From: an uncultured cyanobacterium
GTDB lineage: Bacteria; Cyanobacteriota; Cyanobacteriia; PCC-6307; Cyanobiaceae
Reading direction: 5' to 3'
DNA length: 64,000 nucleotides
Assembly (NCBI GenBank): GCA_963697335.1
Contig: CAVONQ010000018.1
Span: 352,001 to 416,000 of the forward strand
Program-made: the position numbers and the translations under genes
Part shown: piece after piece, positions 46,112-64,000 of the stretch
Numbering within the stretch: the stretch's first letter is position 1
Layout: every line of letters starts with the position of its first letter
The notes under the pieces: generated by a model
Database searches by the model: none
Told to the model about the DNA's origin: nothing
Seen by the model: the letters and a program-made list of their open reading frames with translations, nothing else

Positions 46112-46143
46112 CATGGGGTCCCGTCCGATCGAAGCTGGTGGCC

Positions 46144-47223: not shown

Positions 47224-47436
47224 GAGAACAGGTGATGGGTGCTCGAAAGAGCAGGTAAGTAGGACGGCAGAAGCACTGCAGGGCAAAACCCGGAAGCAGG
47301 AACGGCCGCGGGACGGAACCCCGTCGCTGCTTAACGTAACAGAACGTTGCGGGGTTTGTGAAGAGGGGTTGAGTGTGGTGAACCCACCTTGCGCCTGGCG
47401 CCGGCCCTCAGGGCGCCTCCGTTCAGGCGGCGGGCG

Positions 47437-48411
47437 ATGAGGGGTCGCTCAAAGCTGGTCACCTGGAGCCCGAGCCTCACCCTGGTGCCCACCTCCAGCT
47501 GCTTCAACCGCTGCGGCTACTGCGGTTTTCGCCAGGAGCCCGACCCGCAGGATCCTCTGGCGGACGCGCTCACACAGCCTGAAGCGCAGGCCAGCCTCGA
47601 TCGCCGCCCCAGGGCGGGAGAGGTGCTGCTGCTCAGTGGCGAGGTGGCTCCAGAGGCGCCCCAGCGGCGGGCCTGGTTTCTGTTGTTGCTGCGCCTCAGC
47701 CGCCTCGCCCTGGCCAATGGCCGCCTGCCCCACACCAATGCCGGCCCCCTCTCGCTCCAGGAGATGGCGGCCCTGGGGCGCCTCAATCCCTCCATGGGCC
47801 TGATGCTCGAAGGCCTGGGGCCGGCCTGGCAGCGCTGGCATCGCCAGGCCCCCAGCAAGCGGCTGGAGCTGCGCTTGCTGCAGCTGGAGCAGGCCGGCCG
47901 CCTCGGTATCCCCTTCACCACCGGCCTCCTGCTCGGGGCGGGCGAGAGCTCCAGGGATCGGCGCCAGGCCCTGGAGTTGATCACCCAGCTTCACGTCACC
48001 TGGGGCCACGTGCAGGAGGTGATCCTGCAGCCTTTCCGTCCTCCAGGTCCGTCGCCGGCGGAGCTCGATCCGCCCAGCTGCAATGAGCTGCTGGAGCTGA
48101 TCGCCGAGGCGCGCCACATCCTGCCGCCCGAGGTGCACCTGCAGCTGCCCCCCAACCTCTGGCCGCGTCAGCGGCTGGTGGAGGCCCTCGAGGCCGGCAT
48201 CGATGACCTCGGCGGTATCGACGGCGAGGGGGATGTGATCAATCCCGCCTATTCCCAGCCGTCGCCCCAGGCGCTGACGCGGCAGTTGGTGGCGGCCGGC
48301 TGGGAGCTGCGCCCGCGGCTCTGCGTGCACCGCCCCTGGCTCGCCTGGTTGCCGGCGCCCCTGCGGCAGCGGGCGCAGGCCATGGCCCAGCGGCTCGATC
48401 GCTCTGGTTAG
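47437..48411 (+). CDS. cofG: 7,8-didemethyl-8-hydroxy-5-deazariboflavin synthase subunit CofG
   Basis: [47 protein letters not shown]. Confidence 0.9.
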
Positions 48412-48443
48412 TGTCGCGCCATCACCAACGTGAGTGACGGACC

Positions 48444-50024
48444 TTGAGCACCACCAGTCCCCACCGGGTGCTGCTCGTGAGGCTGCCCTGCAATCCGATT
48501 TTTCCGATCGGCCCCGTCTACCTCGCCGACCATCTGCACAAGCAGTTCCCTGATCTGCAGCAGCGGTTTCTCGACCTCGCCGCTCTGCCGGTGCTCGATG
48601 TGGAGCGCATTCTGGCCGCCGTGGTGGACAGTTTCCGCCCCACCCTGCTGGTGTTCTCCTGGCGTGACATCCAGATCTATGCCCCGGTGGATGGCCGCAG
48701 TGGCAACCCGCTGCAGCACTCCTTCGAGGTGTTCTACGCCCGCAACCCGCTCAAGCGGCTGCGCGGAGCCCTGGGGGGCCTGGGCCTGATGCGCGCTTTC
48801 TACGCCGAGCTCTGGCGCAACCTGCGGCTGGTGCGGCAAGGGGTGAAGCGGGCCCGGCGCTATCAGCCCGAAGCCCGCGCCGTGATCGGGGGCGGTGCCG
48901 TGAGTGTGTTCTATGAGCAGCTCGGGCGCCAGCTGCCCCCCGGCACGGTGGTGTCGGTCGGCGAGGGCGAACCCCTGCTGGAGAAGTTGGTCAGGGGCGA
49001 CTCCCTGGCCGGAGAGCGCTGCTTTGTGGCCGGCGAAGAGCCCCGCCCGGGTCTGATCCATGAGCAGCCCGGCAGTCTGGAGAAAACGGCCTGCAACTAC
49101 GACTACATCGCCTCGATCTGGCCCCAGCTCGACTGGTACCTCGAGGGGGGTGACTTCTACGTGGGGGTGCAGACCAAGCGGGGCTGTCCCCACAACTGCT
49201 GCTACTGCGTGTACACGGTGGTGGAGGGCAAGGCGGTGCGGGTGAATCCGGTGGAGGAGGTGATCGCTGAGATGGGGCAGCTCTACCGCCGGGGGGTGCG
49301 CGGCTTCTGGTTCACCGATGCCCAGTTCATCCCGGCCCGCCGCTACATCGAGGATGCCAAGGAATTGCTGCGGGCGATCCTGGCCGAAGGCTGGCACGAC
49401 ATCCGCTGGGCCGCCTACATCCGCGCCGACAATCTCGATGCCGAGCTGGCCGAACTGATGGTGGCCACCGGCATGGAGTATTTCGAGATCGGCATCACTT
49501 CGGGTTCCCAGGAGCTGGTGCGCAAGATGCGCATGGGCTACAACCTGCGCACCGTGCTGGAGAACTGCCGGCTGCTGGCCAGGGCCGGATTCCGCCACCA
49601 TGTGTCGGTGAACTACTCGTTCAATGTGATCGATGAGCGCCCCGAAACCATCCGCCAGACGGTGGCCTACCACCGCGAGCTGGAGCGCATCTTCGGCGCC
49701 GACAAAGTGGAACCGGCGATCTTCTTCATCGGCCTGCAGCCCCACACCCACCTGGAGCAATACGGCTTCGAACAGGGCCTGATCAAGCCGGGCTATAACC
49801 CGATGAGCATGATGCCCTGGGCGGCGCGCAAGACGCTCTGGAACCCCGAGCCGATGGGCAGCACCTTTGGGCGCATCTGTCTGGAGGCGTTTGACCGCAA
49901 CCCCGGCGACTTCGGCCGCACGGTGATGGACCTCCTGGAGCGGGATTACGGCCTGGCGCCCCTGGATGAGGCCCTCAGGGCTCCGGTGGAAGGCCGTCGC
50001 GCCCTCGCCAACGCGGTGCGCTGA
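48444..50024 (+). CDS. B12-binding radical SAM protein (cyanobacterial PSII high-light acclimation type)
   Basis: RLPCNPIFPIGPVYLADH, SWRDIQIYAP, KRGCPHNCCYC. Confidence 0.88.
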   Translation: MSTTSPHRVLLVRLPCNPIFPIGPVYLADHLHKQFPDLQQRFLDLAALPVLDVERILAAVVDSFRPTLLVFSWRDIQIYAPVDGRSGNPLQHSFEVFYARNPLKRLRGALGGLGLMRAFYAELWRNLRLVRQGVKRARRYQPEARAVIGGGAVSVFYEQLGRQLPPGTVVSVGEGEPLLEKLVRGDSLAGERCFVAGEEPRPGLIHEQPGSLEKTACNYDYIASIWPQLDWYLEGGDFYVGVQTKRGCPHNCCYCVYTVVEGKAVRVNPVEEVIAEMGQLYRRGVRGFWFTDAQFIPARRYIEDAKELLRAILAEGWHDIRWAAYIRADNLDAELAELMVATGMEYFEIGITSGSQELVRKMRMGYNLRTVLENCRLLARAGFRHHVSVNYSFNVIDERPETIRQTVAYHRELERIFGADKVEPAIFFIGLQPHTHLEQYGFEQGLIKPGYNPMSMMPWAARKTLWNPEPMGSTFGRICLEAFDRNPGDFGRTVMDLLERDYGLAPLDEALRAPVEGRRALANAVR

Positions 50025-50098: not shown

Positions 50099-52243
50099 GT
50101 GCGTTACGAGTGGGTCGAGCAACACGCCGAGGAGGATTGCGGCGCGGCCTGCCTGGCCACAGTGGCCCGCTACCACGGCCGCCGGCTGGCCCTCTCCCGG
50201 GTGCGCGAACTGGTGGGCACGGGGACCCGAGGCACCACCTTGCTGGGCCTGCGGCGGGGAGCCGACGCCGTCGGTTTCCATGCCCGGGCGGTGCGGGCCG
50301 ATGGGGCCCTGCTCGACCGCCTCGAGGCGCTGCCCCTGCCGGCGATCTGTCACTGGCAGGGAAACCACTGGGTGGTGCTGTACGGCCGGAAGGGCCGCAA
50401 GCTGGTGATTGCGGATCCGGCTGTCGGGATCCGCAGGTTGTCACCTGAGGAGTTTCGAGCCGGTTGGGGCAACGGGGTGCTGTTGCTGCTTGAGCCGGAT
50501 CTCAACCGTCTGCTGGAGCAGCCGCAGGAGGAGCGGCTGCCGTTTCTGCGCTTCCTGCGGCTGAGCTGGCCCTACCGGGGTTTGCTGCTGCAGGCCCTTG
50601 GCATCAACGTGGTGATCGGCCTGCTGGCCCTGGCCATGCCGCTGTTGATGCAGCTGCTCACCGATGATGTGCTGGTGCGCCGGGATAGCCAACTGCTCAC
50701 CAGCCTTGGCCTGGCGATGCTGTTTCTGTTTGTCTTTCGCAGCGCCATCAGCCTGATCCAGGGCCACATAGTGGGTCATTTCGCCCAGCGCCTTCAGCTG
50801 GGGATGGTGCTGGAGTACGGCCATCGGCTGCTGCGCTTGCCGATGACCTATTTCGACAGCCATCGCAGTGGCGAGGTGGTGAGCCGGATTGGCGACATCA
50901 GCCGGATTAATGCCCTGATCAGCGATCTGGTGTTGGGCCTGCCCAGTGACTTCTTCATTGCTGCCATCTCGCTGGTGGTGATGCTGATCTACAGCCCTCC
51001 ACTGACGGTCGTGTCCCTGTTGGCGTTTGGAATTTTGATCGCTTCCGGACTGCTATTTCTGCCAGCTCAATACGAAAAAAGCCGCCGCGTGATTGTGGAA
51101 TCCGCGGAGAATCAGGGGTTTCTGGTGGAGATCTTCCGTGGCGCCCAGGTGCTTAAAACCACCGAGGCGTTGCCCCAGGCCTGGGACGAGTACCAGCGCA
51201 ATTTCGGCAGCGTTGCGCACCTGCGTTGGGATGCACTGCAGTTGTCGTTGTTCAGTGGCACCACCACCGGGCTGCTGTCGCGGGTCACCACCCTGGCCCT
51301 CCTCTGGTATGGCAGCAGCTTCGTGATTTCTGGTCAACTCTCCATCGGCCAGTTGCTTGCTTTCAGCGGTATGAGCGGCAATGTGCTCGGTTTTCTGGAA
51401 TCCCTCGTGGACTTCACCGACGACTACCTGACCGCCAACGTGGTGATCAGGCGGCTCTCGGAGGTGCTGGAGGGCAGCCTGGAGGACCCTAAGGCGATCG
51501 ACAAGCCATGGGTGGCCCTGCCGCAGCCGTGCGAGATCCAGTGCCGCAATCTCAGCTTCCACCATGCCGGCCGGCTGGACCTGCTCAGCAACCTTCACCT
51601 CACCATTCCCGCCGCCTGCTGCACCGCCGTGATCGGGGAATCTGGCTGCGGCAAGAGCACCCTGGTGAAGCTGCTGGCCGGCCTCTATCCACCCCAGAGC
51701 GGCTCGATCCACTACGGACCCTACGGCCGTCACGACATCTCCCTGGACTGCCTGCGGCGGCAGGTGGTGCTGGTGCCCCAGGAGGCCCAGTTCTTCAACC
51801 GCACGATCTTCGAGAATTTTCGCTTCGCCTATCCCGACGTCAGCTTCGATCAGGTGGTGGCGGCCTGCGAGCGGGCACTGGCCGACGAATTCATCCGCGA
51901 CCTGCCGGACGGTTACCAGACCGTGCTGGGAGAATTCGGCGCCAACCTCTCGGGTGGTCAGCGCCAGCGCCTGGCGATCGCGCGCGCCCTGGTGTCCTGT
52001 CCGGCCGTGCTGATCCTGGATGAATCCACCGCCGCGTTGGACCCGGTGCTGGAGCGGCGCCTGATGGACAACCTCCTGCAGCATCGCAAGGGTTTGACCA
52101 CGGTGATGATCAGTCACCGCCCGAGCGTCATCCAGCGCTGTGATTGGCTGGTGTACCTGGAGCGAGGCCACGTCGTGTCCCAGGGTCGACCCCAGGACCT
52201 GGGCAACAGTGCACCACTGGCCCCCTACCTGCTGACGGCATGA
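50099..52243 (+). CDS. Peptidase C39-containing ABC transporter (PCAT, double-glycine leader exporter)
   Basis: QHAEEDCGAAC, NHWVV, IADP catalytic residues; TM domain; GESGCGKST, LSGGQ, ILDES, ISH. Confidence 0.95.
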   Translation: MRYEWVEQHAEEDCGAACLATVARYHGRRLALSRVRELVGTGTRGTTLLGLRRGADAVGFHARAVRADGALLDRLEALPLPAICHWQGNHWVVLYGRKGRKLVIADPAVGIRRLSPEEFRAGWGNGVLLLLEPDLNRLLEQPQEERLPFLRFLRLSWPYRGLLLQALGINVVIGLLALAMPLLMQLLTDDVLVRRDSQLLTSLGLAMLFLFVFRSAISLIQGHIVGHFAQRLQLGMVLEYGHRLLRLPMTYFDSHRSGEVVSRIGDISRINALISDLVLGLPSDFFIAAISLVVMLIYSPPLTVVSLLAFGILIASGLLFLPAQYEKSRRVIVESAENQGFLVEIFRGAQVLKTTEALPQAWDEYQRNFGSVAHLRWDALQLSLFSGTTTGLLSRVTTLALLWYGSSFVISGQLSIGQLLAFSGMSGNVLGFLESLVDFTDDYLTANVVIRRLSEVLEGSLEDPKAIDKPWVALPQPCEIQCRNLSFHHAGRLDLLSNLHLTIPAACCTAVIGESGCGKSTLVKLLAGLYPPQSGSIHYGPYGRHDISLDCLRRQVVLVPQEAQFFNRTIFENFRFAYPDVSFDQVVAACERALADEFIRDLPDGYQTVLGEFGANLSGGQRQRLAIARALVSCPAVLILDESTAALDPVLERRLMDNLLQHRKGLTTVMISHRPSVIQRCDWLVYLERGHVVSQGRPQDLGNSAPLAPYLLTA

Positions 52244-53385
52244 GCGAGCTTCCCGTCCGGGTGGCTGACGCCACCGAGAGCCAGCAGCTGCGCCCGGCCT
52301 CTGTTCAGGAGTTCCTGCCCTCGGTACGCCCCTGGGTGCGGCTGGCCGGCGTCGTGCTGGTGGGGAGTTTTGTGGCCGGCGTGGCGTTGATGGCGGTGTG
52401 GCCCTACCGAGTGGTGGTCAGAGCAGCAGGGTCTGTGCGGCCCAGTGGCGAGACCAGCCTGGTGCATGCGCCGCGGGATGGGCGGGTGAGGGAGATCCGC
52501 ATCCAGCCCAATCAGGAGGTCGAACGGGGTGAGGTGCTGGCGGTGATGGATCCCGCCGATCTGGAGGGCAGGGAGCTGAAGCTGCGGCAGGGCGGCACAT
52601 CGCTCGATGACCAGCTGGCGGCGCAGCGCAGGGAGAACACGGCTGCACTGCAGGCGGCACGACTGGAGGTCGAGAAGGCCCGGGCCACCCTTGATCTGGC
52701 CCGCTCGGAGTACCAGCGCTACAGCCAGCTCGTCAGCAGCGGTGCCGCCTCCCGGGAGCAGATGGAGGAGAAGCGTGCCAGTCTGAGCGTGGCGTCATCC
52801 AACCTGGCCAAGGCCCAGCGGGATGTGGAGCAGCAGCAGTCCCGGGGCGAGACTGCCCTGGCGAGACTGGGACAGCAACAGGTTGAAAACCAGGCGGAAC
52901 GGGCCCAGCTCGGCCGTGATCTCGGACGCCAGCTGATCAGGGCGCCCGTAGGGGGTGTGATCTTCTCCCTCACCCTCCGCAACCCCCTCCAGGTGGTCAC
53001 GGCCGGCCAGGAGCTGGCGCAGATCGCGCCCGAGGGGGCGCCGTACCTGGCGAAGGTGCAAGTGTCATCAGCGGACATCGCCAATGTGGAGGTGGGCCAG
53101 CGGGCCGATCTGCGCCTGGCGGGCTGTCCCTTCCCCGATTTCGGGACCCTGCGGGCCGAGGTGGTGTCCGTGGCTCCTGATGCGGCTGCGGTTCCGTCTG
53201 CTCCCGGTGGCGCGGGGGCCAGTGGCTATGCGGTGACACTGCGCCCGGAGCAGACCCAGCTGCGCTCGTCGTCCCGAAGCTGTGAGCTGCGGCTGGGCAT
53301 GGACCTCACAGCTGACATCACCACCCGGGTCGAGACCGTGCTCCAGTTCCTGTTGCGCAAGACCCGGCTGCTGGTGGGGCTGTGA
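52240..53385 (+). CDS. HlyD-family membrane fusion (periplasmic adaptor) protein
   Basis: ATG overlaps the PCAT stop (ATGA); one TM, GSVRPSGE, coiled coil, IRAPVGG, PFPDFGTL, LRLGM. Confidence 0.92.
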   Translation: MSELPVRVADATESQQLRPASVQEFLPSVRPWVRLAGVVLVGSFVAGVALMAVWPYRVVVRAAGSVRPSGETSLVHAPRDGRVREIRIQPNQEVERGEVLAVMDPADLEGRELKLRQGGTSLDDQLAAQRRENTAALQAARLEVEKARATLDLARSEYQRYSQLVSSGAASREQMEEKRASLSVASSNLAKAQRDVEQQQSRGETALARLGQQQVENQAERAQLGRDLGRQLIRAPVGGVIFSLTLRNPLQVVTAGQELAQIAPEGAPYLAKVQVSSADIANVEVGQRADLRLAGCPFPDFGTLRAEVVSVAPDAAAVPSAPGGAGASGYAVTLRPEQTQLRSSSRSCELRLGMDLTADITTRVETVLQFLLRKTRLLVGL

Positions 53386-53517
53386 TGCTGTGGCGACCCC
53401 CCTGGGCGGGACGCTTCCTCCTGCTGGGCGTGGGATTCATCGCAGTTCAGGCGTGGTGGGCTCCGCGCTGGGTTCTGCCAGCAGCCAGCACAGCCCCATG
53501 GGGGAGCAACAGCAGGG

Positions 53518-53572
53518 GTAAGAGTTTTCTTGCCGCTTTCCTGCCAATCTCTTACCGCCCATCTTGTAGTTT
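53518..53572 (+). promoter_or_regulatory. Operator/promoter of precursor 1: GTAAGA-N4-TCTTGCC-N4-TCCTGCC-N4-TCTTACC-N10-TAGTTT
   Basis: Three heptads at 11-bp period (53528, 53539, 53550) and a -10-like hexamer at 53567; same layout as 54095-54149. Confidence 0.7.
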
Positions 53573-53711
53573 ACGATCAGAACAGTCCCTTGGACTGATC
53601 AACCGATGGGCCAAACATGACCCACGTCTTGATCGCCAGAGGTCGGACGTCCGTCTGTTCAGGCCTTTCTGAATACAGAGTCTGATTTAAGTTCATCAAG
53701 AGGAGCAATCC

Positions 53712-53942
53712 ATGAACACAGAATCCATAGCAGACATGAGCCTGCCGGGGCTCAATCTGCTCTCGGGAGCAGAGAGCTTCATCCACGATCTCAACCCTGA
53801 AGATGAGGCCTCGATCGCGGGCGGCAGTGGCAGGCGCAGCCGTCTGCGCAGCCGCCGCAGCCGCCTTCGCAGCCGCCTCCGCAACCGCCGCAGCCGTTTG
53901 CGCAGTCGCCGCAGCCGTCTGCGCAGCCGCCGCAGGCGTTAG
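53712..53942 (+). CDS. Double-glycine leader precursor peptide A1 with Arg/Ser/Leu repeat core
   Basis: AGGAG RBS; 38-aa leader ending DLNPEDEASIAGG; core SGRRSRLRSRRSRLRSRLRNRRSRLRSRRSRLRSRRRR. Confidence 0.88.
   Translation: MNTESIADMSLPGLNLLSGAESFIHDLNPEDEASIAGGSGRRSRLRSRRSRLRSRLRNRRSRLRSRRSRLRSRRRR
53830..53939 (+). repeat. Imperfect 21-bp coding tandem repeat (RRSRLRS x4)
   Basis: CGCCGCAGCCGTCTGCGCAGC-like units with synonymous variation. Confidence 0.8.
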
Positions 53943-54094
53943 GAGGGTGGGTGGCCAGGTCTCCCAACAGGGGCTGTGCCCCCCGATGTTCACAAGGGGG
54001 CGCGCACCTCTCGAGGGTTGCATGGCTGGGGTGATGAAGTCACCTCGCTTGGCGTGACGGGAGCCCTACCCCATGGCGGTCACGCAGGGGAACA

Positions 54095-54149
54095 GTAAGA
54101 CTACTCTTACCATTCTCCTGCCATTCTCTTACTGTTCACCTGTTACATT
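54095..54149 (+). promoter_or_regulatory. Operator/promoter of precursor 2: GTAAGA-N4-TCTTACC-N4-TCCTGCC-N4-TCTTACT-N10-TACATT
   Basis: Heptads at 54105, 54116, 54127; extended -10 TGtTACATT at 54141-54149. Confidence 0.7.
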
Positions 54150-54300
54150 CCTATTAGTCCAGCCAAGAAGGCCGGACTGGTGGACAGGGCCGAAAGCCGC
54201 ACACAGATCACAGATCACAGAGCACTGATGGTCTTGTTGCCTACGGTTCTCTCCATCGCTCAATCAACCCTGGCACTTTGCCGAAACGGAGGAATACCGC

Positions 54301-54528
54301 ATGAACACACAAACCACAGCCGATGTTGCGTTGCTGGGCCTCGACCTGCTGCTCGGGCCCGATAGCCTCATCAGTGAGCTCAGTCCTGAGGATGAGGCCT
54401 CGATCTCGGGTGGCCGCCGTCGCCGCAGCCGCAGCGGCATCAGCCGTCCCAGCCGCAGCCGTCCCAGCCGCCGCAGCCGTCCCAGCCGTCCCAGCCGTAG
54501 CTTCCGGCGCAACCGCAGGCGCCGTTGA
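54301..54528 (+). CDS. Double-glycine leader precursor peptide A2 with Arg/Ser/Pro repeat core
   Basis: GGAGG RBS; 38-aa leader ending ELSPEDEASISGG (23/38 identical to A1); core RRRRSRSGISRPSRSRPSRRSRPSRPSRSFRRNRRRR. Confidence 0.88.
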   Translation: MNTQTTADVALLGLDLLLGPDSLISELSPEDEASISGGRRRRSRSGISRPSRSRPSRRSRPSRPSRSFRRNRRRR

Positions 54529-54573
54529 GCAAGTGACTGACCGGGGAACTTCTCCCCCTGTCGAGAGCTTCAG

Positions 54574-54609
54574 ACCCCGGGGCTGCTGGATGCCAGCCTC
54601 GGGGTTTTT
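54574..54609 (+). terminator. Intrinsic terminator/attenuator after precursor 2
   Basis: ACCCCGGGGCTG-N8-CAGCCTCGGGGT 12-bp stem (one G:U) followed by a T tract. Confidence 0.75.
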
Positions 54610-54671
54610 CTATAGCCTTGATCAAGTCCCTTGGGGCTGGAGCTTGTTGTTGCCGTGGTGAGTCTGGGGTC

Positions 54672-57164
54672 ATGGTCGTTCGTTTGAATTCGGAGGGCAT
54701 CCACGAGTATTTGATGCATCAGGGTCTGTGCGATTCAACGGATGTCGTTGAAGACGTTCAACAGTTGATTGGCAAAAATATGAATCTGCTGGTTCAACTC
54801 ACAAAGCCTGATGCTCAACCTTCAAGAGCCCGTCACTTGCTGATCAAGCAGGGACCGATCGGGCGATCGGAGCTGCCCAAACAGGATTTTGAAGAGGAAT
54901 GGAGAATTCATCAGCTGCTGGCTGGCCACGAACAGCTGTTTCCCCTGCAGGCCTTGCTGCCAGAGGGGATCAAGTTTGACGTCGCCAATGCCATTCAGAT
55001 CTTTCGATATCTTGAATCGTATGGCGATCTTGGCGACTTCTATGACGATGCCAAGCGGTTTCCCACCAAGGTCCCTGTGGCCCTCGGCAGTGCCCTAGCC
55101 GCGCTGCATCAGGCAACGTTCAGCCGCCAAGACTATCTTCTCCAATTAGATCCAGAGAGTGCTGATGAGGGATGTGAAAAGCCTGACTTTCGCGATGAGC
55201 TTGAGAATCTCACTCCAGAGATCTTCCGGCAGATCTCGATTGATGGTTTGCAATTCTACAGATTGTACAACCGATCAGAAGAGCTCTCGAAGGCCATAGC
55301 TCAGCTGGAGCATGACTATGAACCATGCTGCTTGATCCACAATGACCTGAAGTTTAGAAATATCCTGCTTCATGATGATTGGTCCCGCTGGCAGCCCCCG
55401 TCGTCCCTTCCTGCTTCTGTCCATGAGTTGTGTCTGCCCGATGCTCAGGGCCTTGTGCGTCTGATTGATTGGGAGCAATGGGCATGGGGTGACCCGGCCT
55501 TTGATGTGGGCGCCCTTGTGGCTGAGTATCTGCGGCTGTGGTTAAAGAGTCTGGTGCTCAGCCGCGATGTTGACCTGGTGGTGGCGTTGCAGCTTGCTGC
55601 CGTGCCCCTGGACACGCTGCAGCCCTCCCTTGCGGCCTTCATGCAGGCCTATCTGGCCCAGTTCCCCGGCATCCTGGCGGCGTTTCCCGCCTTCCCAGCA
55701 CGGGTGCTGCGCTTCGCCGGCCTCGGTTTGATTGGGGCGATTCAGGACAGGCTGCACTATCGGGAGTCCTGTGGAAATCTGGAAATTGCGATGCTGCAAG
55801 TGGCCAGATCATTGCTCTGCAATCCGGAAGCCGCCATGGTCACGGTGTTCGGCTGCAGGGATGTTCAACCTGATGGCTTTCAACCTTCTGGCCTTGAACC
55901 TGACCTTGCACCTGGCCTTGAACGTGACGTTGGAGACAGCGGCAGCCCTTCTCCCGCCCAATCCCCACGCGACAAGTGTGAACTGCAGGGCCAGGTGCCT
56001 CTGCCCCTTTGGGTGCAGCGTGGCCCTAGTGAGGAGGCTCTCGCTGACCTGATCACCAATGTTCGAATTGAGCCTCCACTGATTTTTCATCCGGCCTACC
56101 AGGTCCTTGATCTGGTCCATCCAGGGGAACCTCAGAGCACGGGGATGGATCAACGCCAGCAATGCTTGAGCAAGTTGCCTGACGACCTTCGCCAGGCCTA
56201 TCTGGTGCGTCAGGTGAGAAACTATCTGCATGATATCTACTTCAGTGGCGAGCGGGAAAGGAAGGGGCCTGGGATTGCGGCGACCAAGGAGTTCAAGAAC
56301 GATTCTGTTTCTGGACTCAACGTGGATTACTTTCATCGGATCGAGCTGGCCAATGGCGGCACAGGCTTTCCTGACCCCGACTGGATGATCCTTCGCTGGG
56401 ATGGCGATCGTGCTCAGGTGGAAAAAGATGGTCTGCGACTCTGGGTTAATCCCTGCGTTGACCTTGTGAAGGATGAGGCCTTGAAGCTGAGCTCCATCCG
56501 GCGTGAGGGTCCACCATCAGTAACTGTGGGTGCAGCAGTGGGTGCAGCAATGGCTGTGGGAACAACGGTGGTGTTACGGTTGCCCAATGCAGTTTTGACT
56601 GAAGAGAGCTACAGCGCGATCGGCAATGGAGGAGAGCCTGCTCCTGATCAGCCTTGCATCATCATCTACTTCAATATCAGTGCTGAAGGTGCTCTTCTGC
56701 TGATGGATGTTCTGACCAAGGCCCTGAATCTGCAGGGATGCCCCTTCGCTTTGACCATCCTGACTGATCCTGCCTGCTATGGCCGATTCAACAGTGTCAC
56801 CTTGATGATCGAGGCTACTCACTATCAGGACGTACGCACCATTCTCTGTGAGCTTCAGGCCAGGCTTCAGCCCCATCTGAGCCATCCGATTCCCCTGTTC
56901 ACCTGGCCTCTGGCCCCGGGCATCGGTCTGGCCGAATGCCCGCAGGACGAGGATGACTTTGGTCTGTCTCGATGCCAGATCCTGGCCGAAGCCCTGATCC
57001 TGGCTGATGCCAGTCCCGAGTCCCGGCGGCAAGCCATGCGAGCAAAGTTTTCCGAGCGCAAGCTGAACTGGCAACATCCCCACCTCAATCCTGAATCAGA
57101 CTCCCACTACCCACCCCTGCCGCCACGGGACCGTAGCCAGGCGGCGAATGTCCATCTCAACTAG
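54672..57164 (+). CDS. Fused APH-family phosphotransferase + HopA1-like domain protein (putative RiPP maturase), 830 aa
   Basis: N-half: GKNMNLLV, LLIKQ, IHNDLKFRNIL, LIDWE...GDPAFD. C-half: IYFN, YGRFNS, PLFT..LAPGIGLAE, FGLSRCQ, HPHLN resembling HopA1 family. Confidence 0.8.
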   Translation: MVVRLNSEGIHEYLMHQGLCDSTDVVEDVQQLIGKNMNLLVQLTKPDAQPSRARHLLIKQGPIGRSELPKQDFEEEWRIHQLLAGHEQLFPLQALLPEGIKFDVANAIQIFRYLESYGDLGDFYDDAKRFPTKVPVALGSALAALHQATFSRQDYLLQLDPESADEGCEKPDFRDELENLTPEIFRQISIDGLQFYRLYNRSEELSKAIAQLEHDYEPCCLIHNDLKFRNILLHDDWSRWQPPSSLPASVHELCLPDAQGLVRLIDWEQWAWGDPAFDVGALVAEYLRLWLKSLVLSRDVDLVVALQLAAVPLDTLQPSLAAFMQAYLAQFPGILAAFPAFPARVLRFAGLGLIGAIQDRLHYRESCGNLEIAMLQVARSLLCNPEAAMVTVFGCRDVQPDGFQPSGLEPDLAPGLERDVGDSGSPSPAQSPRDKCELQGQVPLPLWVQRGPSEEALADLITNVRIEPPLIFHPAYQVLDLVHPGEPQSTGMDQRQQCLSKLPDDLRQAYLVRQVRNYLHDIYFSGERERKGPGIAATKEFKNDSVSGLNVDYFHRIELANGGTGFPDPDWMILRWDGDRAQVEKDGLRLWVNPCVDLVKDEALKLSSIRREGPPSVTVGAAVGAAMAVGTTVVLRLPNAVLTEESYSAIGNGGEPAPDQPCIIIYFNISAEGALLLMDVLTKALNLQGCPFALTILTDPACYGRFNSVTLMIEATHYQDVRTILCELQARLQPHLSHPIPLFTWPLAPGIGLAECPQDEDDFGLSRCQILAEALILADASPESRRQAMRAKFSERKLNWQHPHLNPESDSHYPPLPPRDRSQAANVHLN

Positions 57165-57181
57165 CCAGCAATCAGGATGCG

Positions 57182-57886
57182 ATGAGAATTCTAGTGGTTG
57201 AAGATGATGCTGGGATTTCCAGATTCATCCAGCAAGGACTGAGCGAGGCTGGCTACGCTATCGACGTGGCTTCTGATGGTCCCGAAGGATTGCGATTTGC
57301 CGAGGCCGCTGACTACGATGCCGTAGTGCTCGACGTGTTGCTGCCTGGTCAGGATGGCTTGAGCGTCCTGAAGAGCCTGCGCCAGCAGGGCCTTCAGACC
57401 CCGGTGCTGCTGTTGACGGCCCTGGATACCGTCGAAGACCGAGTGCTGGGTTTGGATGCAGGGGCTGATGACTACCTGATCAAACCATTTGACTTCACAG
57501 AACTACTGGCTCGCCTGCGCGCATTGCTCCGGCGCCCGCCCTTGCATGCCGATGTCGTGCTCAGAGTGGGTCGTCTGCAGATGGACACAGTCCACAGGAT
57601 TGTCAAGCGGGATGACCATCCGATTGAGCTCAGCCCACGGGAGTATTCCCTGCTGGAATATCTGATGCGCAATGCGGATCACGTTCTCAGCCGCACCCAG
57701 ATCGCCCAGCATGTCTGGAGTTTTGACTTTTATGGAGACTTCAAGGTGATTGATGTCTATATTGGCTATCTGCGTCGAAAAATCGATCAGCAGGGATCGC
57801 CGTCGTTGATCAGAACCGTGCGTGGTGTGGGTTATTCGATGAACGCTCATGTGGAGGCTTCCCCTGCTGAAGGAGTCGGCCCCTGA
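57182..57886 (+). CDS. OmpR/PhoB family response regulator
   Basis: ILVVEDD, VLDVLLP, LLTA, GADDYLIKPF, LSPREY, IRTVRGVGY. Confidence 0.96.
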   Translation: MRILVVEDDAGISRFIQQGLSEAGYAIDVASDGPEGLRFAEAADYDAVVLDVLLPGQDGLSVLKSLRQQGLQTPVLLLTALDTVEDRVLGLDAGADDYLIKPFDFTELLARLRALLRRPPLHADVVLRVGRLQMDTVHRIVKRDDHPIELSPREYSLLEYLMRNADHVLSRTQIAQHVWSFDFYGDFKVIDVYIGYLRRKIDQQGSPSLIRTVRGVGYSMNAHVEASPAEGVGP

Positions 57887-57911
57887 TCCCATTACCTTCC
57901 ATGTTTAGATC

Positions 57912-59375
57912 ATGGTGATGCAGCGAAAGTCCTGGCAAAGTCTGCGCTTGAGGCTGGTGGCCTGGTACAGCTTGTTGGCCGGCGTTTCGATGCTTGTTTC
58001 CGATGGCTATACCTATCTGGAGTTTCGACAGACCCTGCTGGCCCAGATTGACCGTTCTCTGGAGGTCAGCGCAATTCAGGCCCGCAAGAATCTTGACGAT
58101 GAAGTTGATGCGCTGGTGTTTGACCCCCGCCGGGACGCGCCGCTGCTGGCCTCCCTGCTTAATGATGCGGGCGTAGAAATCTATTTGATCAGTTTGGATG
58201 GTTCGATCAAGGAGCAGTTCGGAGACTCGCTCTCATCCCTCAGCACATCCAACCTCGAACCTGGATACCATACCGTCGCCAGGTCCAGTGGGCGTTGGCG
58301 AACCTATACCAAGGAACTTCTTGCCAGTGGGGGTGATCCCTCGGGATGGCTGAAGGTGGCTCAGTCGCTCAAGCCCATGGATGCCACCTTGGCCAGGGTG
58401 TTTCAGCGCAATCTTCTCAAGCTACCCATTCTGCTTGGCATGATTGCCCTTGGCGGACTGTTTCTGGCCAACCGTGCCCTGCAACCCATCGCCCGAATCA
58501 CAAGAACGATTCAGCATATTCGGGTGAGTGGAGATCTCGCCCAGCGCATTCACTACAAGAGCAGTGCTGCTGATGAACTGGCGCGCCTGGCTACTCTCAT
58601 TGATGGGATGCTGGATTCCATTCAGTCCACCTTTGACCACGAAAGACGATTCACTGCCGATGCATCCCATGAGCTTCGCACCCCGCTGACAGCCATGAAG
58701 GGTCGTCTGCAGGTGACCCTGAGCCAACTCCGCACGGTCGACACTTACGAAGAGACCCTCAGGGCGATCGGGCTGGAAGTGGATCGTTTGATTCGTCTCA
58801 GCAATGATCTGCTGCTGCTCTCCCGTCTGGAGCAGAACCACATCAATCCTCCCATGGAAAAGGTGGATCTTGGCCATTTACTCGCCGAGTCGGCTGCCCA
58901 GATTCAGCCGCTGGCTGAACTTCGCCATCTCCATCTGACGACGACCCTTGAGCCCGATCTTTTTATCCAGGGATACCCAGACCATCTGATTCGTTTGTTT
59001 CTGAACCTGCTCGATAATGCCGTCAAAAATACTCCCGATGAGGGCTCTGTGGGTGTGCAGGCCCTGACCTTCTCAAGCATGGTGCAGGTCACCCTTCGTG
59101 ACAGCGGCGTCGGCATCCCCTCTGAGCACCTGCCCCATCTGTTTGAACGCTTTTATCGCGTCGAGAAATCCCGTTCACGCGCCTTGGGTGGCACAGGTCT
59201 GGGCCTGGCCATTGCCCAGGAAATCGTCCATCGCCACCACGGCACGATCTCCGTGGCGAGTCAGCCTGGCCTGGGGACGACCTTCACGATCAGATTTCCA
59301 TGTCATCGCGATGCCGCAGCCGATTCCCATGCCCCTCAGCCCAGGCACCGACTGGGATCAGCAGAGTCCAGCTAG
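57912..59375 (+). CDS. Membrane sensor histidine kinase (2 TM, HAMP, HisKA, HATPase_c)
   Basis: DELARLA, FTADASHELRTPL, NLLDNAVK, DSGVGI, FERFYR, GTGLGLAI. Confidence 0.95.
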   Translation: MVMQRKSWQSLRLRLVAWYSLLAGVSMLVSDGYTYLEFRQTLLAQIDRSLEVSAIQARKNLDDEVDALVFDPRRDAPLLASLLNDAGVEIYLISLDGSIKEQFGDSLSSLSTSNLEPGYHTVARSSGRWRTYTKELLASGGDPSGWLKVAQSLKPMDATLARVFQRNLLKLPILLGMIALGGLFLANRALQPIARITRTIQHIRVSGDLAQRIHYKSSAADELARLATLIDGMLDSIQSTFDHERRFTADASHELRTPLTAMKGRLQVTLSQLRTVDTYEETLRAIGLEVDRLIRLSNDLLLLSRLEQNHINPPMEKVDLGHLLAESAAQIQPLAELRHLHLTTTLEPDLFIQGYPDHLIRLFLNLLDNAVKNTPDEGSVGVQALTFSSMVQVTLRDSGVGIPSEHLPHLFERFYRVEKSRSRALGGTGLGLAIAQEIVHRHHGTISVASQPGLGTTFTIRFPCHRDAAADSHAPQPRHRLGSAESS

Positions 59376-60250
59376 CCGCTCCTCCCATGGGCCTGTTCAT
59401 TGCTGCCCTGGCACCGGGGAGGGCCTTGGCGCTGTTGAACGAGCAGCACAGCCAGCAGCCCCAGCCAGCCGATCGCACCCCCCAGTGGGTTGGTGCCTGA
59501 GCCCACACCGCCGGGCCCGGCCCACCAGCCGGGCGCCTCGGCCGACACCGCCAGCAGCCCGCTCTGCACCAGGAACCAGCCGCCCACGAGGCCACCGTGC
59601 AGCGCCGCCGGCCCCCACAGCAGGCCGTTCCCCCCTTGCCTCTCCCGGGCCAGCACCACCCCCAGCAGGATCAGGCCCCCCAGCAGGCTGAATGCCAGGA
59701 GCCCATTCTCCTGATACCAGGGGTGCACCAAGCCAAACACCAGGGCCTGCAGCAGCAGCGCCAGGGGATCCTTCAGCCCCAGCCGCAGTTCACCCCAGAG
59801 CCAGCCGCGAAATAGCAGCTCCTCCGCCAGGCCCACGCCGCAGGCCAGCAGCAGGGCATTCACGAGCAGGCCCCCATCCAACCTGCCCAGCCAGCGGGCC
59901 TGCCCGCTGAGCAGCAGCGCCACGCTCACCAGTGCCAGCAAGGCCAGGGCTTTGGCCAACCCCCTGGCGGCGCTGGCCAGGGCTCGGCGGGGGCTGCAGA
60001 TGAGGCCAAGGGTCCTCCAGGGTCGCGACACCCCCCAGGCGGTGCGCAGACGCCACGGCAGCGTGGCCAGCAGAAGGGCAAAGGAGAGCGACACGCCGGC
60101 CAGGTCCACCTGGTCAGGCCGCCAGCCAGGTGCCAGCCAGCCCAGGGGCCGGGAGAGCAGGAAGCCCACGCCATAGAGCACGGGCACATAGAGCACCGTG
60201 CCCCACCAGCGGGGCATGGGTGCAGGCCCAGCCGGGCCTGGCGCCGCCAT
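59372..60250 (-). CDS. CPBP (CAAX protease/Abi) family intramembrane metalloprotease
   Basis: AEELLFRG, FGLVH, LHGG motifs; multiple TMs. Confidence 0.88.
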   Translation of the reverse strand: MAAPGPAGPAPMPRWWGTVLYVPVLYGVGFLLSRPLGWLAPGWRPDQVDLAGVSLSFALLLATLPWRLRTAWGVSRPWRTLGLICSPRRALASAARGLAKALALLALVSVALLLSGQARWLGRLDGGLLVNALLLACGVGLAEELLFRGWLWGELRLGLKDPLALLLQALVFGLVHPWYQENGLLAFSLLGGLILLGVVLARERQGGNGLLWGPAALHGGLVGGWFLVQSGLLAVSAEAPGWWAGPGGVGSGTNPLGGAIGWLGLLAVLLVQQRQGPPRCQGSNEQAHGRSG

Positions 60251-60573
60251 CAGGTTTCCGGTTCGAGGCTGCTGGTGAGCCCCTTGCCCTTGAGGGTTTC
60301 GCAGTAGAACTCCGCCGGTTCCAGATCGCAGACGATCACCAGGCCCACGCCGGTGTTGTGGGCCTCCAGCATCACCGCGATCGCGTCCTGCTCACTGAGC
60401 GAGGGCACCACCTGGCGCAGGGTGGTGACCACATAGTCCATCGCGTTGACGGGGTCGTTGTGGAGAAGGACTTTGTAGCGGGGTGATGGCTTGCGCACCC
60501 GCTGCGGGGCCTTCTCCATCACCGCAGCGCCGCCGCCCTCGCGGCCCGGGGCCGCCGTGGCTGTGGTTCGCAT
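60250..60573 (-). CDS. clpS: ATP-dependent Clp protease adaptor ClpS
   Basis: YKVLLHNDPVNAMDYV, MLEAHNTG, AEFYCE. Confidence 0.93.
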   Translation of the reverse strand: MRTTATAAPGREGGGAAVMEKAPQRVRKPSPRYKVLLHNDPVNAMDYVVTTLRQVVPSLSEQDAIAVMLEAHNTGVGLVIVCDLEPAEFYCETLKGKGLTSSLEPET

Positions 60574-60626
60574 GGCTGCCTCCTCGGTCACGACTGCTTT
60601 CACGACTGCCCTATTTAAGGATGGGA

Positions 60627-61853
60627 TCAAAGTCTGCGGATCCGCTGCATGGCCTCATCCACGTTGGCGCGGCTGTTGAAGGCTGAGAGGCGGAAATAGC
60701 CCTCTCCGGCGGCGCCGAAGCCGCTGCCCGGCGTGCCCACCACATGGGCCTGGCTCAGCAGCTTGTCGAAGAAGCCCCACGAATCCAGCCCGGCGGGTGT
60801 CTTGAGCCACACATAGGGCGCCTGCTCGCCGCCATACACCTGCAGGCCCGCCGCCGCCAGCTCGCGCCGGATGATCGCGGCGTTTTCCATGTAGAAGGCC
60901 ACCAGGTCCTTCACCTGGGTCTGCCCCTCGGCGGAATAGACCGCCTCGGCCCCGCGCTGCACGATGTAGCTGACGCCGTTGAACTTGGTGCTCTGGCGCC
61001 GGTTCCAGAGGCCCCAGAGCTCCACGGCTTCGCCGTTGGCCGCCGTGCCCATCAGGCCCCGCGGCACCACCGTGAAGGCGCAGCGGGTGCCGGTGAAGCC
61101 GGCGTTTTTGGAGAAGGAGCGGAACTCGATCGCGCACTCCCGGGCCCCCTCGATCTCGTAGATCGAATGGGGCAGCTCCGGATCCTGAATGAAGGCCTCG
61201 TAGGCGGCGTCGAACAGAATCAGGGCGCCGTGGGCGCGGGCGTAGTCCACCCAGGCCTTGAGCTGTTCCTTGCTGGCCACCGCACCGGTGGGGTTGTTAG
61301 GGAAGCAGAGGTAGATCAGATCCACCGGCTCGTTGGGGATCTGGGCGCTGAAGCCGTTCTCGGCATTGATCGGCAGGTAGGTGAGGCCGCCGTACTGGCC
61401 GCTCTCATCGGCCTCGCCGGTGCGGCCCGCCATCACGTTGCTGTCCACATACACCGGATACACCGGATCGGTCACGGCGATGCGGTTGTCCGGTCCGAGG
61501 ATGTCGAGGATATTGCTGCTGTCGCACTTGGAGCCGTCGGAGACGAAGATCTCCTCGGCGCTCACCTGGCAGCCGCGGGCCTGGAAATCGTGGGCGGCGA
61601 TCGCCTCGCGCAGCCAGCCGTAGCCCTGTTCCGGGCCATAGCCATGGAAGCCCTCGGCGGTGCCCATGGCATCGATCGCCGCCTTCATGGCGCTGCGGCA
61701 GGCCGCCGGCAGCGGTTCGGTGACATCGCCGATGCCGAGGCGGATCAGAGCGGCCCCGGGATGGGCCTCGCCGAAGGCCTTCACCCTCCGGGCGATCTCT
61801 GGAAACAGATACCCCGCCTTGAGCTTGAGGTAGTTGCCGTTGACCTGCACCAC
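60627..61853 (-). CDS. dapL: LL-diaminopimelate aminotransferase
   Basis: [41 protein letters not shown]. Confidence 0.96.
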
Positions 61854-61951
61854 AGGGTTGCTGCCGAACTCCAGCGGGCATCCTGCTACGTCAGCTGGCT
61901 GCCGCGTGGCCCCGGGCTGCATACCATCGGCCCAGGCCTGCCCGCGCCCCC

Positions 61952-64000
61952 ATGACCGCCACTCCGACTGTCGTGGCCGCCGCGACCGAGCCGATCGACT
62001 TCGATGCCCTGATCGACCTCTCCATCAGCAAGCCGGCCCGCTACCTCGGCAACGAGCTCGGCGTGGAGCCCCGCGACTGGCACGCCGCCGCCGTGCGCTG
62101 GGCCCTCACCTACCCCGAGGTCTACGAGGTGGGGGCCAGCAACCTGGGCCACATCATTCTCTATTCCCTGCTCAATGCCGTTCCCGGCCAGCTCTGCGAC
62201 CGCGCCTACCTGCCGGCGCCCGACCTGGCCGAGCGGCTGCGGGAGCGGCAGCAGGCTCTGTTCGCGGTGGAGAGCCGCCGCCCCCTGCCGGCCTTCGACA
62301 TCCTCGGCTTCAGCCTCAGCTACGAGCTTGGCGGCACCAACATCCTCGAGATGCTGGACCTGGCCCGCTTGCCCCTTTGGGCCGACCAGCGCGGCGATCT
62401 GCCCCTGGGCCATCCCGGGGCGCCGCCCCTGATCTTCGCCGGGGGGCCCACGGCCACCAGCAACCCCGAGCCCTTCGCCGCCTTCTTCGACTTCATCGCC
62501 CTGGGCGATGGCGAGGAGCTGCTGCCGGAGATCGGCCTGGTGGTGGCCGAGGCCAAGGCGGCCGGCCTCAGCCGCCGCGACACCTTGCGGGACCTGGCCC
62601 AGGTGCCGGGCGTGTACGTGCCCGCTCTCTACGGGCCGGGCCCCGATGGAGTGGCGATCGTGCCCCTGGAACCCGGGCTGCCGCCGCGGATCCAGCGGCG
62701 CACCGCCAGCCCCATGCCCCACTACGCCATGGGGCTGGTGCCCCACATCGAAACGGTTCACGACCGCCTCACGGTGGAGATCCGGCGGGGCTGCACCCGC
62801 GGCTGCCGCTTCTGCCAGCCCGGCATGCTCACCCGGCCGGCCCGGGATGTGGAGCCCGAGGCGGTGATCGAGGCGGTCGAGGAGGGGATGCGCCGCACCG
62901 GCTACAGCGATTTCTCCCTGCTCTCGCTCAGCTGCTCCGACTACCTGGCTCTGCCGGCGGTGGGGGTGGAACTGCGCAACCGTCTGGCCGAGCAGAACGT
63001 GAGCCTCACCCTGCCCAGCCAGCGGGTGGATCGCTTCGACGATGACATCGCCCACATCCTCGGTGGTACCCGCAGGGCCGGGCTCACTTTTGCCCCGGAG
63101 GCCGGCACCCAGCGCCTGCGCGACATCGTCAACAAGGGCCTCACCGACGCCGAGCTGCTGCGGGGCCTGCGCACGGCCATGCAGAACGGCTACAGAAAGG
63201 TGAAGCTCTACTTCATGATCGGCCTGCCCGGCGAGAGCGACGCCGACGTGCTCGGCATCGCCGACACCTGCCGCGCTCTGCAGGAGCAGTGCCGCGATCT
63301 GGGCCGCCTGGAGTTGAACCTCACGATCAGCACCTTCACGCCCAAGCCCCACACCCCGTTCCAGTGGCACAGCGTCAGCGGCGAGGAATTGCGGCGCCGC
63401 CAGGGGCTGGTGCGCCAGGCCCTGCGCCAGCTGCGCGGCGTCAAGACCAACACCACCGACCTGCGCCTCTCCGCCGTCGAAGACTTCGTGGGCCGGGGCG
63501 ACCGGCGCCTGGCGCCGGTGATCGAGGCGGCCTGGCGGGCCGGCGCCGGCCTGGACGCCTGGTTTGAGTCGGCGGAGCGCAGCCATGCCGCCTGGACCGG
63601 GGCGATCGAGGCGGCCGGCCTGGGCGGCCGCTATCGCGCCCTGGAGATGGGGGCCTGGAGCGCCGCGGAAGCCCTCAGCGCCGATGACCTCGACGCCTTC
63701 TGCCGCCAGAGCCTGCCCTGGGACCACATCGACACCGGCGTCGACAAGCGCTGGCTCGCTGAAGACCTGCAGCGGGCCCTGGCCGCCACCGTGGTGCCGG
63801 ACTGCTCCTTCGAGGGCTGCAGCAGCTGTGGAGTGTGTGGACCGGAGCTGGGCCACAACGTGGTGATCCCGGCGCCCCCGGTACCGCCCCAGCTGCCGCC
63901 GCGGGCCCCCGCCTCGGAGCGGGTGCTGCGGCTGCGCTTCGGCTTTGCCAAGACCGGCAGCCTCGCCCTGATCAGCCACCTCGACACATTGCGTCTGCTG
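61952..64000 (+). CDS. B12-binding radical SAM protein (TIGR03960-like, fused TIGR03936-like domain), truncated by window end
   Basis: Hand translation MTATPT...[38 protein letters not shown], ending [19 protein letters not shown]; absent from ORF track because it has no stop. Confidence 0.88.

Follow-up and report, generated by a model that had tools for sequence, protein, structure and literature searches.

We analyzed an island of seven genes at positions 50099-59375 of a 64,000-nucleotide stretch of contig CAVONQ010000018.1 (the whole stretch is referred to here as the window). The host is a picocyanobacterium with a genome of 2.58 Mb in 18 contigs, and the window also carries psbA (46144-47286). 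The island appears to encode a pathway for peptides that are synthesized ribosomally and modified after translation (RiPPs), in which a kinase fused to a HopA1-like lyase fold would act on two secreted peptides rich in arginine and serine. All seven open reading frames (ORFs) are co-oriented, and the family of each large gene is backed by Pfam (Table 1). This agrees with a first-pass annotation of the sequence, which had named a peptidase-containing ABC transporter (PCAT) with an HlyD adaptor, two precursors with a double-glycine (GG) leader, a kinase/HopA1 maturase, and a two-component system belonging to the island. Neither the ORF list nor the Pfam scan gave any enzyme gene within 50099-59375 beyond the fused protein.

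Table 1. Features of the island, in window coordinates
Feature	Position	Strand	Evidence or description
Short-type PCAT, 714 aa	50099..52243	+	Pfam Peptidase_C39 2.2e-35, ABC_membrane 2e-36, ABC_tran 1.3e-29
HlyD-family periplasmic adaptor	52237..53385	+	ORF opens at 52144, likely ATG at 52237; Pfam HlyD_3 4.5e-22
Putative operator 1, TCTTRCC-like direct repeats, 11-bp period	53518..53575 (core 53528-53555)	+	∼157 nt 5' of A1
Precursor A1	53712..53942 (core 53826-53939)	+	38-aa GG leader, 38-aa core
Putative operator 2, TCTTRCC-like direct repeats, 11-bp period	54095..54152 (core 54105-54132)	+	∼169 nt 5' of A2
Precursor A2	54301..54528 (core 54415-54525)	+	38-aa GG leader, 37-aa core
Intrinsic-terminator-like hairpin with U5	54575..54609 (hairpin 54575-54604)	+	Between A2 and enzyme gene; GC-rich, bulged
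Fused LxmK-like kinase (∼1-395) and LxmY/HopA1-like lyase-fold half (∼456-820), 830 aa	54672..57164	+	Pfam HopA1 6.2e-38, APH 1.6e-6
OmpR/PhoB-family response regulator	57182..57886	+	Pfam Response_reg 1.1e-27, Trans_reg_C 4e-27
Sensor histidine kinase (HAMP, HisKA, HATPase)	57912..59375	+	Pfam; extracytoplasmic loop of ∼135 aa

The A1 core consists of 22 Arg and 9 Ser among its residues and the A2 core of 19 Arg, 10 Ser, and 4 Pro, and neither contains any Cys or Thr. Their leader is common to related loci, including precursors found beside split kinase/HopA1 pairs, and follows the conserved acidic pattern ...LGLxLLSGxxSF..DLxPEDE.SIxGG; neither precursor has a family match in Pfam or NCBIfam. 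A genome-wide search with the leader alignment returned A1 and A2 only, plus one match at an E value of 0.93 that was disregarded. Because 17 further loci, of which 12 come from the 103-locus survey described below and 5 from the genus, show the same design of leader plus cationic core, the sequences indicate that the Arg/Ser reading frame of the cores is no chance product. The other frames of the core DNA, which are Ala/Cys rich or Gln/Pro rich, were ruled out: the frame of the leader continues through the Arg/Ser core until the stop codon is reached, the 17 loci repeat the design with different nucleotide repeats, and a relative carrying the same cluster (G412) differs by in-frame repeat indels only. 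Class V lanthipeptides require core Cys together with a LanX-type cyclase or a LanD decarboxylase. Since the cores have no Cys and the island encodes neither cyclase nor decarboxylase, the sequence excludes lanthionine and aminovinyl-cysteine (AviCys) products, as had been argued at first pass.

The exporter fits these precursors. PCATs cleave after GG and export the core, and in the PCAT of the island the C39 match is nearly end to end (profile positions 2-130 of 133), while the leaders end in IAGG and ISGG. Its N terminus holds the motifs ...EEDCGAACL... and ...GNHWVVL..., whose DCG Cys and NHW His we take to be the catalytic residues of the C39 domain. Both exporter proteins also match NCBIfam models, each under the respective cut-off (bacteriocin_ABC at 1.4e-109 for the PCAT, type_I_hlyD at 2.6e-37 for the adaptor), and two TolC-like genes are located elsewhere in the genome.

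The fused enzyme and its lyase-fold half

A phmmer search of the PDB with the 830-aa protein found only LxmKY chains (9dk1_A, E value of 0.0039; 9dk1_B, E value of 0.0013), with the kinase chain aligned to the N-terminal half and the lyase chain to the C-terminal half. An AlphaFold2 model computed from 60 homologues reached a predicted local distance difference test (pLDDT) score of 85.3 and a predicted template modeling (TM) score (pTM) of 0.85, with a less confident linker at 413-440. When this model was submitted to Foldseek, LxmY and LxmK ranked first (LxmK 9dk3_A, TM score of 0.80; LxmY 9dk3_B, TM score of 0.73; E values of ∼1e-12), before methylthioribose and choline kinases. Because both halves match by sequence and by fold, we identify the protein, on sequence and model grounds, as a single-chain version of the LanK/LanY heterodimer, the dehydratase of class V lanthipeptides. 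It is a distant one, scoring 85.8 bits with the NCBIfam LxmK equivalog against a cut-off of 315.

The kinase half, as judged from sequence and model, has the APH fold and the intact catalytic residues of a LanK-type Ser/Thr kinase: K59, E76, H223/D225/N230, and D266 are invariant or nearly so among 60 fused homologues. Prediction of a complex between the enzyme and A1 gave a score of 0.73, against 0.01 for the best of three controls; among solved complexes 116 of 157 attain this mark, among mismatched pairs 2 of 215, and it shows likeness and not binding. Contact agreement in these runs was at least 44%, and the pLDDT of the partner was at least 44. In the predicted interface, residues 10-31 of the precursor contact the enzyme at residues 194-202, 290-317, and 368-391, in helices of the kinase C-lobe. 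A review describes an AlphaFold 3 model of LxmA in which the leader is placed on the same lobe of LxmK, and reports for LxmKY that the Y subunit is required for solubility of K and contributes to the substrate cavity (PMC12141560). The docking model supports the view that A1 and A2 are substrates of the fused enzyme.

The picture is different for the lyase-fold half. Four residues of the lyase CaoY have been named (R187, K219, R229, and Y236), and the reported CaoY mutants range from inefficient (R229Q) through nearly abolished elimination (R187A) to a phosphorylated peptide only (K219A) (PMC9486802). In an HMMER alignment to LxmY at ∼20% identity, in which the spacings from K to R (+10), from K to Y (+17), and from R to K (−32) are all consistent, the equivalents in the window are I664, T695, R705, and M712. 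The HopA1 fold of a LanY is thus present and its catalytic R-K-R-Y set is not. Among the 60 fused homologues, the second Arg (R705) is invariant (60/60) and the Lys is kept in 44, but the first Arg is kept in only 7 and replaced by Glu in 23, and the Tyr is kept in 1; in the window's enzyme, as in the five homologues nearest to it, the Lys is replaced by T, S, or A. At the same time, the lyase-fold half is 67-90% identical within the close clade, compared with 34-72% for the linker, and must therefore still have some role.

Based on these data, we lean toward phosphoserine over dehydroalanine (Dha) as the modification, because of the K219A precedent in CaoY combined with the triple substitution at the lyase site. 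To the reading that the island is a RiPP-type LanK/LanY pathway in which phosphoserine largely persists on the exported Arg/Ser peptides, we give about an even chance. The first-pass annotation had left phosphoserines and dehydroalanines side by side, and the loss of three of the four residues named in CaoY now shifts the odds to the former. We regard it as rather unlikely, if clearly possible, that the lyase half is active by means of other residues or of the flanking Arg of the substrate, so that the peptide would be exported as a linear poly-Arg product bearing as many as 9-10 dehydroalanines. Every characterised LanK/LanY pair dehydrates, as far as the published accounts of these systems go (PMC9486802, PMC8153245, PMC10880069). 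The highly significant HopA1 domain, the conservation of this half well above the linker, the invariant R705, and the widely kept Lys would all fit such an activity, and a site that is remodelled rather than decayed, with Glu frequent at the R187 position, could be an adaptation to a cationic substrate. However, the window and its nearest homologues have lost precisely the Lys whose replacement by Ala leaves CaoY without lyase activity, the equivalents of R187 and Y236 are gone as well, and a reductase, cyclase, or thiol partner by which ten Dha residues could be consumed or stabilised is missing from the island.

A wider survey took in 103 loci, made up of the window, 2 genome contigs, 20 regions from cyanobacterial genomes that had been sampled, and 80 contigs from metagenomes. 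In 13 of them, precursors with the leader have cationic cores of Ser/Thr repeats (e.g., RRTRTRTRGRTRTRTRTGRR, KSKSKSKS..., or RRRPRRRRPRRRR...). A lyase ORF is present in 96 of the 103 loci, which allowed 13 cationic-core loci to be compared with 83 others. The full R-K-R-Y signature occurs in 0/13 of the former as opposed to 66/83 of the latter, and Arg at the first lyase position in 2/13 as opposed to 78/83. All eight fused enzymes of the survey belong to the 13 cationic-core loci, and the fused loci of the same genus likewise all have cationic cores (5/5). The PCATs of cationic-core loci are of the short type (750-1375 bits to that of the window versus ∼200-430 bits for canonical loci). In a tree of the kinase domain, 12 of the 13 cationic loci share one side of a branch supported at 99%. 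The remaining one, L103, falls within the canonical loci, next to two others whose sites are altered; the association between cationic cores and lyase site therefore needs at least two changes. On two or more separate branches of the tree, the remodelled lyase pocket follows the charge of the substrate. Since the surveyed loci are mutually related, this association is to be read as a pattern and not as a statistic.

The same loci bear on whether the peptides are modified at all. For unmodified bacteriocins with a GG leader, PCAT and HlyD are enough, and the literature searched held no modified product of a cyanobacterial member, so one may think of A1 and A2 as class-II-like cationic bacteriocins exported as they are, with the enzyme acting elsewhere or only chaperoning the precursor. 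We consider this highly improbable, in view of the enzyme gene lying directly 3' of a cationic precursor in 13/13 fused loci, the invariant kinase residues, the leader predicted on the kinase lobe with a score far above the controls, and a Ser or Thr content of the core that, although the repeats turn over fast, stays at 18-42% in each of the 13 cationic loci surveyed.

Several cores and lyases of the survey depart from the type of the window. Lys/Ser-repeat cores with a short terminal Cys-rich motif (…CCYCH, …CGYCH, GCCYC…, or …CGCGYGC) occur on the metagenome contigs L070, L101, and L103 and, in the supplement of Eyles et al. (PMC8153245), in Stanieria and Pleurocapsa. Because some Lys/Ser cores begin or end Cys rich, their sequences suggest that some cationic cores, unlike those of the window, could still form thioether or metal-binding ends. 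An acidic core rich in Pro and Thr (TAETPGPDETPPPTPDETPGTT) follows the leader of another precursor (L131:343-525); its neighbor is a lyase with W-K-C-C as signature, and the locus belongs to the small clade that also holds L103. Split kinase/HopA1 pairs of a second paralogue group, located in the sampled genomes of cyanobacteria and on metagenome contigs (L039-L043, L045, L048-L050, L117, and L119), carry Gln or Glu for the catalytic Lys (signatures RQRY, RQRH, RERH, RERD, and QQRY), and a motif scan gave no leader-bearing precursor within ∼7 kb of them. At least one kinase/HopA1 match was present in each of the 45 sampled genomes of one cyanobacterial family.

Regulation and genomic setting

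The putative operators 5' of the two precursor genes share a block that is conserved in an alignment of four upstream regions from three genomes and can be written as a 28-nt pattern of three heptamers, TCTTRCC-N4-TCNTRCC-N3-CTCTTAC. This pattern has two matches in the window, where 0.01 are expected, and these two are also the only ones in the whole genome. It is found 5' of precursors in 9 of 10 related fused-enzyme loci with at most 4 mismatches, while 124 other loci (1.23 Mb, some overlapping) gave three matches, each at 4 mismatches. The hairpin after A2 has a folding free energy of −31.3 kcal/mol (z score of −3.7), and 0 of 200 shuffled sequences were as stable; after A1 there is no significant hairpin (z score of −0.4). 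A simple scan for terminators and promoters returned nothing above shuffle level and missed the bulged A2 hairpin. Thus, the duplicated operators of the first-pass annotation are confirmed, and the terminator that it had placed after the precursors stands after A2.

The regulator combines a receiver with a winged helix, its partner is a HisKA kinase, and the tandem repeats, spaced by ∼11 bp, would be the binding sites, so that by sequence the pair is a two-component system of the OmpR/PhoB type. Close homologues of both proteins are encoded in all six loci of the clade of the window, and the regulator is co-conserved with the fused enzyme in L002, L003, L056, L057, and L058. A weaker regulator match adjoins the precursor in three further cationic loci; among the 83 noncationic loci there were two matches, both weak and distant. 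The top NCBIfam matches of the regulator and the kinase are the heavy-metal response regulator and histidine kinase subfamilies, with 264 and 241 bits at cut-offs of 279 and 293, respectively. The sensor kinase has a transmembrane-like segment at 167-190, and its loop contains 1 His, 1 Met, and 0 Cys, as well as 18 Asp plus Glu and 16 Lys plus Arg, for a net charge of ∼−2.

An operator that occurs only 5' of the two precursor genes, a two-component system closest to the CopRS/CusRS subfamily, and an island without an immunity gene would all suit a peptide that is mainly a signal (an autoinducer, in the way that NisRK senses nisin) or a phosphopeptide for handling minerals or metals, rather than an antimicrobial. 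CusS binds metal through His and Met, however, and the sensor loop of the island offers few candidate metal ligands; with its nearly balanced charge, the loop also shows no obvious acidic patch for a polycation. We consider a mainly signaling or metal-handling peptide unlikely.

Window position ∼50025 is joined directly to ∼59510 in several genomes of the same genus, with flanks that are otherwise collinear; in one of them (G408), window ∼46141-50024 is followed by 66 bp and then by window ∼59510-63000. Because the flanks are contiguous in these genomes, the block, of 9.5 kb, is an accessory piece of DNA inserted with a radical-SAM gene on one side and a gene for a CPBP protease on the other. 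Both neighbors were considered and ruled out as parts of the cluster: the B12/radical-SAM gene (48444-50024) is also present in same-genus genomes without the island, as is the CPBP/Rce1-like gene (59372-60250, − strand), a candidate immunity gene with host-like GC content. The fused enzyme was found in 5 of the 32 genomes of the genus (5 of the 25 that are at least 90% complete); outside the genus, none of the 29 family genomes sampled had it.

GC content drops from ∼0.68-0.70 to ∼0.56 between 53.5 and 59.4 kb, so that the island divides into two parts. The transporter genes (50099-53385) have a GC content of 0.60-0.68 and 77-84% DNA identity to the carrying relatives G415 and G401, while the precursor-enzyme-sensor part (53500-59400) stays at ∼0.56. 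One relative (G412) carries the same cluster, including both precursors, at 86-90% DNA identity. In G415, at the same site, the transporter part is 77% identical in DNA whereas the enzyme is only 50% identical in protein, and this contrast suggests that the island is a mosaic, in which a precursor-enzyme-sensor module was probably exchanged on a more stable transporter backbone. Another genome of the genus, G427, has two divergent copies of the fused enzyme ∼9 kb apart (C2:1606632-1609019 and C2:1617889-1620348), each with its own cationic precursor, one of which has a core of (SRP)n-type repeats. An Arg/Ser precursor, a fused enzyme with 54% identity, the same operator, and the same two-component system also occur on L003, a 137-kb contig titled as a Mesorhizobium metagenome-assembled genome, which groups with picocyanobacterial loci on the tree and may be misbinned. 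There, no PCAT is encoded within 10 kb, and a DevB/DevC/DevA-like tripartite ABC exporter lies directly 3' of the sensor kinase (L003:14694-17686); it may be an alternative export or immunity module.

Proposed pathway and its significance

Put together, these elements suggest the following pathway. The dedicated OmpR-type two-component system would drive both precursor genes through the three-heptamer operators, and the hairpin after A2 would attenuate read-through, keeping precursor mRNA above enzyme mRNA. The prediction has the acidic leader docking on the kinase half at its C-lobe; by homology, this half would phosphorylate the 9-10 Ser of the poly-Arg core stepwise under guidance of the leader. 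The lyase-fold half, having lost three of four catalytic residues including the proton-abstracting Lys, would most likely serve as a scaffold or substrate clamp. The phosphoserines would then largely persist, taking the charge of the core from ∼+22 to near neutral inside the producer, until the PCAT, as is usual for its family, cleaves after GG and exports the core together with HlyD and a TolC-like protein encoded elsewhere.

In our view, the product would most likely act outside the cell as a polycationic antimicrobial or allelopathic peptide, possibly activated by dephosphorylation and possibly with feedback to the sensor kinase. Aminoglycoside producers make their pro-antibiotics in phosphorylated form, and we tentatively extend this logic to the island, at somewhat less than an even chance: a kinase fused to a retired lyase might act as a charge-masking maturase, which neutralises a self-toxic polycation, the secreted poly-Arg multi-phosphoserine peptide, until export. 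We argue that, with 9-10 phosphates approximately cancelling 19-22 Arg charges, the tolerance of the producer for a protamine-like peptide without an immunity gene would be explained.

Several points weigh against persistent phosphoserine. The island has no phosphatase or immunity gene. The constraint on the lyase half fits a scaffold, and just as well a lyase that still works with its residues moved elsewhere; a majority of the fused homologues retain the Lys, so most of the branch may still eliminate phosphate, and the subclade of the window could compensate through another base, e.g., the nearly invariant K585. Moreover, the mapping of the lyase residues is built on sequence alignments of low identity, and the complex prediction was run on alignments of our own making.

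The cationic branch is the easiest entry point to the chemistry of these clusters, given its simple repeat cores, a single fused enzyme, and a readout of +80 Da versus −18 Da. Phosphorylation has been termed rare in natural-product biosynthesis (PMC12639078). If the phosphates persist, the island would represent a new modification logic for RiPPs and a natural dehydratase that lost its second half-reaction; it would be the first RiPP class defined by multisite Ser phosphorylation, produced by a lanthipeptide dehydratase that returned in evolution to being a kinase only. If dehydrated instead, the peptides would be unusually Dha-dense linear polycations. Either way, they are candidate allelopathic or signaling agents of abundant aquatic picocyanobacteria, under a private two-component system with a putative two-site regulon.

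Comparison with known systems

Eukaryotic protamines and SR proteins are phosphorylated by SRPK-type kinases, and Bac7 and PR-39 are proline/arginine-rich antimicrobial peptides. The cores of the island resemble these by analogy, with Arg above 50%, Ser at regular spacing, and, in A2 and in relatives, repeats of RPSRP or RRRP, and as with SR proteins and SRPK, a dedicated Ser kinase is present whose phosphorylation would mask charge. There is no homology, however, and the peptides of the island are bacterial and, as predicted, leader directed and secreted. A second likeness concerns regulation. LanRK lantibiotic operons (NisRK and SpaRK) and three-component class II bacteriocin loci have an in-cluster regulator and kinase, direct-repeat operators, and a terminator after the precursor. 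The island shares with these systems the OmpR-type regulator and sensor kinase, the direct repeats 5' of the precursors, and the terminator before the downstream genes, but it has no LanFEG or LanI immunity genes, and its Gram-negative host implies export by a PCAT/HlyD/TolC route.

With regard to the enzyme, LxmK/LxmY and CaoK/CaoY (lexapeptide and cacaoidin) and TvaC/TvaD (thioamitides) have the same pairing of an APH-fold kinase with a HopA1-fold partner, and LxmK/LxmY are the best PDB matches by sequence and fold, with leader docking on the kinase C-lobe predicted in both systems. In contrast to all three, the two subunits are fused into one chain in the island, and three of the four lyase residues are replaced. 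The class V and thioamitide systems are also actinobacterial, whereas the island is cyanobacterial, with cores free of Cys and Thr and no cyclase, decarboxylase, or reductase gene.

The closest relatives come from genome mining. The first-pass annotation had called the system undescribed, which does not hold, since Eyles et al. catalogued this kind of cluster in 2021 as "Family 1A," with 570 peptides in 183 clusters from cyanobacteria only, conserved GG leaders, variable cores, and products not identified in the paper (PMC8153245). Their supplementary file 2 lists, without comment there, Arg/Ser and Lys/Ser cores beside HopA1 genes from Cyanobium PCC 7001, strain CCP1, Leptolyngbya ohadii, Chroococcidiopsis PCC 6712, Stanieria, Pleurocapsa, and Scytonema, and in their similarity networks the Arg/Ser peptides belong partly to network 1 (those of Chroococcidiopsis, Stanieria, and Pleurocapsa) and partly to 103, 118, and 142, the Cyanobium peptide being in 118 and not in 1 (PMC8153245). 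The main text of that study does not take up these peptides, and the words "arginine," "cationic," and "basic" do not occur in it (PMC8153245), nor do "kinase" or "arginine" in the main text of an earlier classification of cyanobacterial PCAT clusters by Wang et al. in 2011 (PMC3140520). A1 and A2 are absent from the peptide table of Eyles et al. The further statement at first pass, that no characterised RiPP has such cores, stands for the literature searched, from whose reach most subscription journals and one PDF supplement of Eyles et al. were excluded, although such cores had already been tabulated. Similarly, that literature yielded no characterised product of any cyanobacterial kinase/HopA1 cluster, despite the hundreds of peptides in the 2021 survey.

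The cluster kind is therefore known, and it is this branch of it that is not described. As a GG leader beside a HopA1/phosphotransferase pair in a cyanobacterial host, the island fits Family 1A, with which it shares the leader motif (of the xSELFxDSESFLNEL...GG type), the GG site, the kinase/HopA1 pairing, hypervariable cores, and the restriction to cyanobacteria (PMC8153245). It differs in lying on a separate, well-supported branch of the kinase tree. Not described before is the combination of polycationic cores of Ser/Thr repeats with a fused enzyme, a PCAT of the short type, and a remodelled, noncanonical lyase site, to which the window's own clade of six loci adds a dedicated two-component system with a two-site operator.

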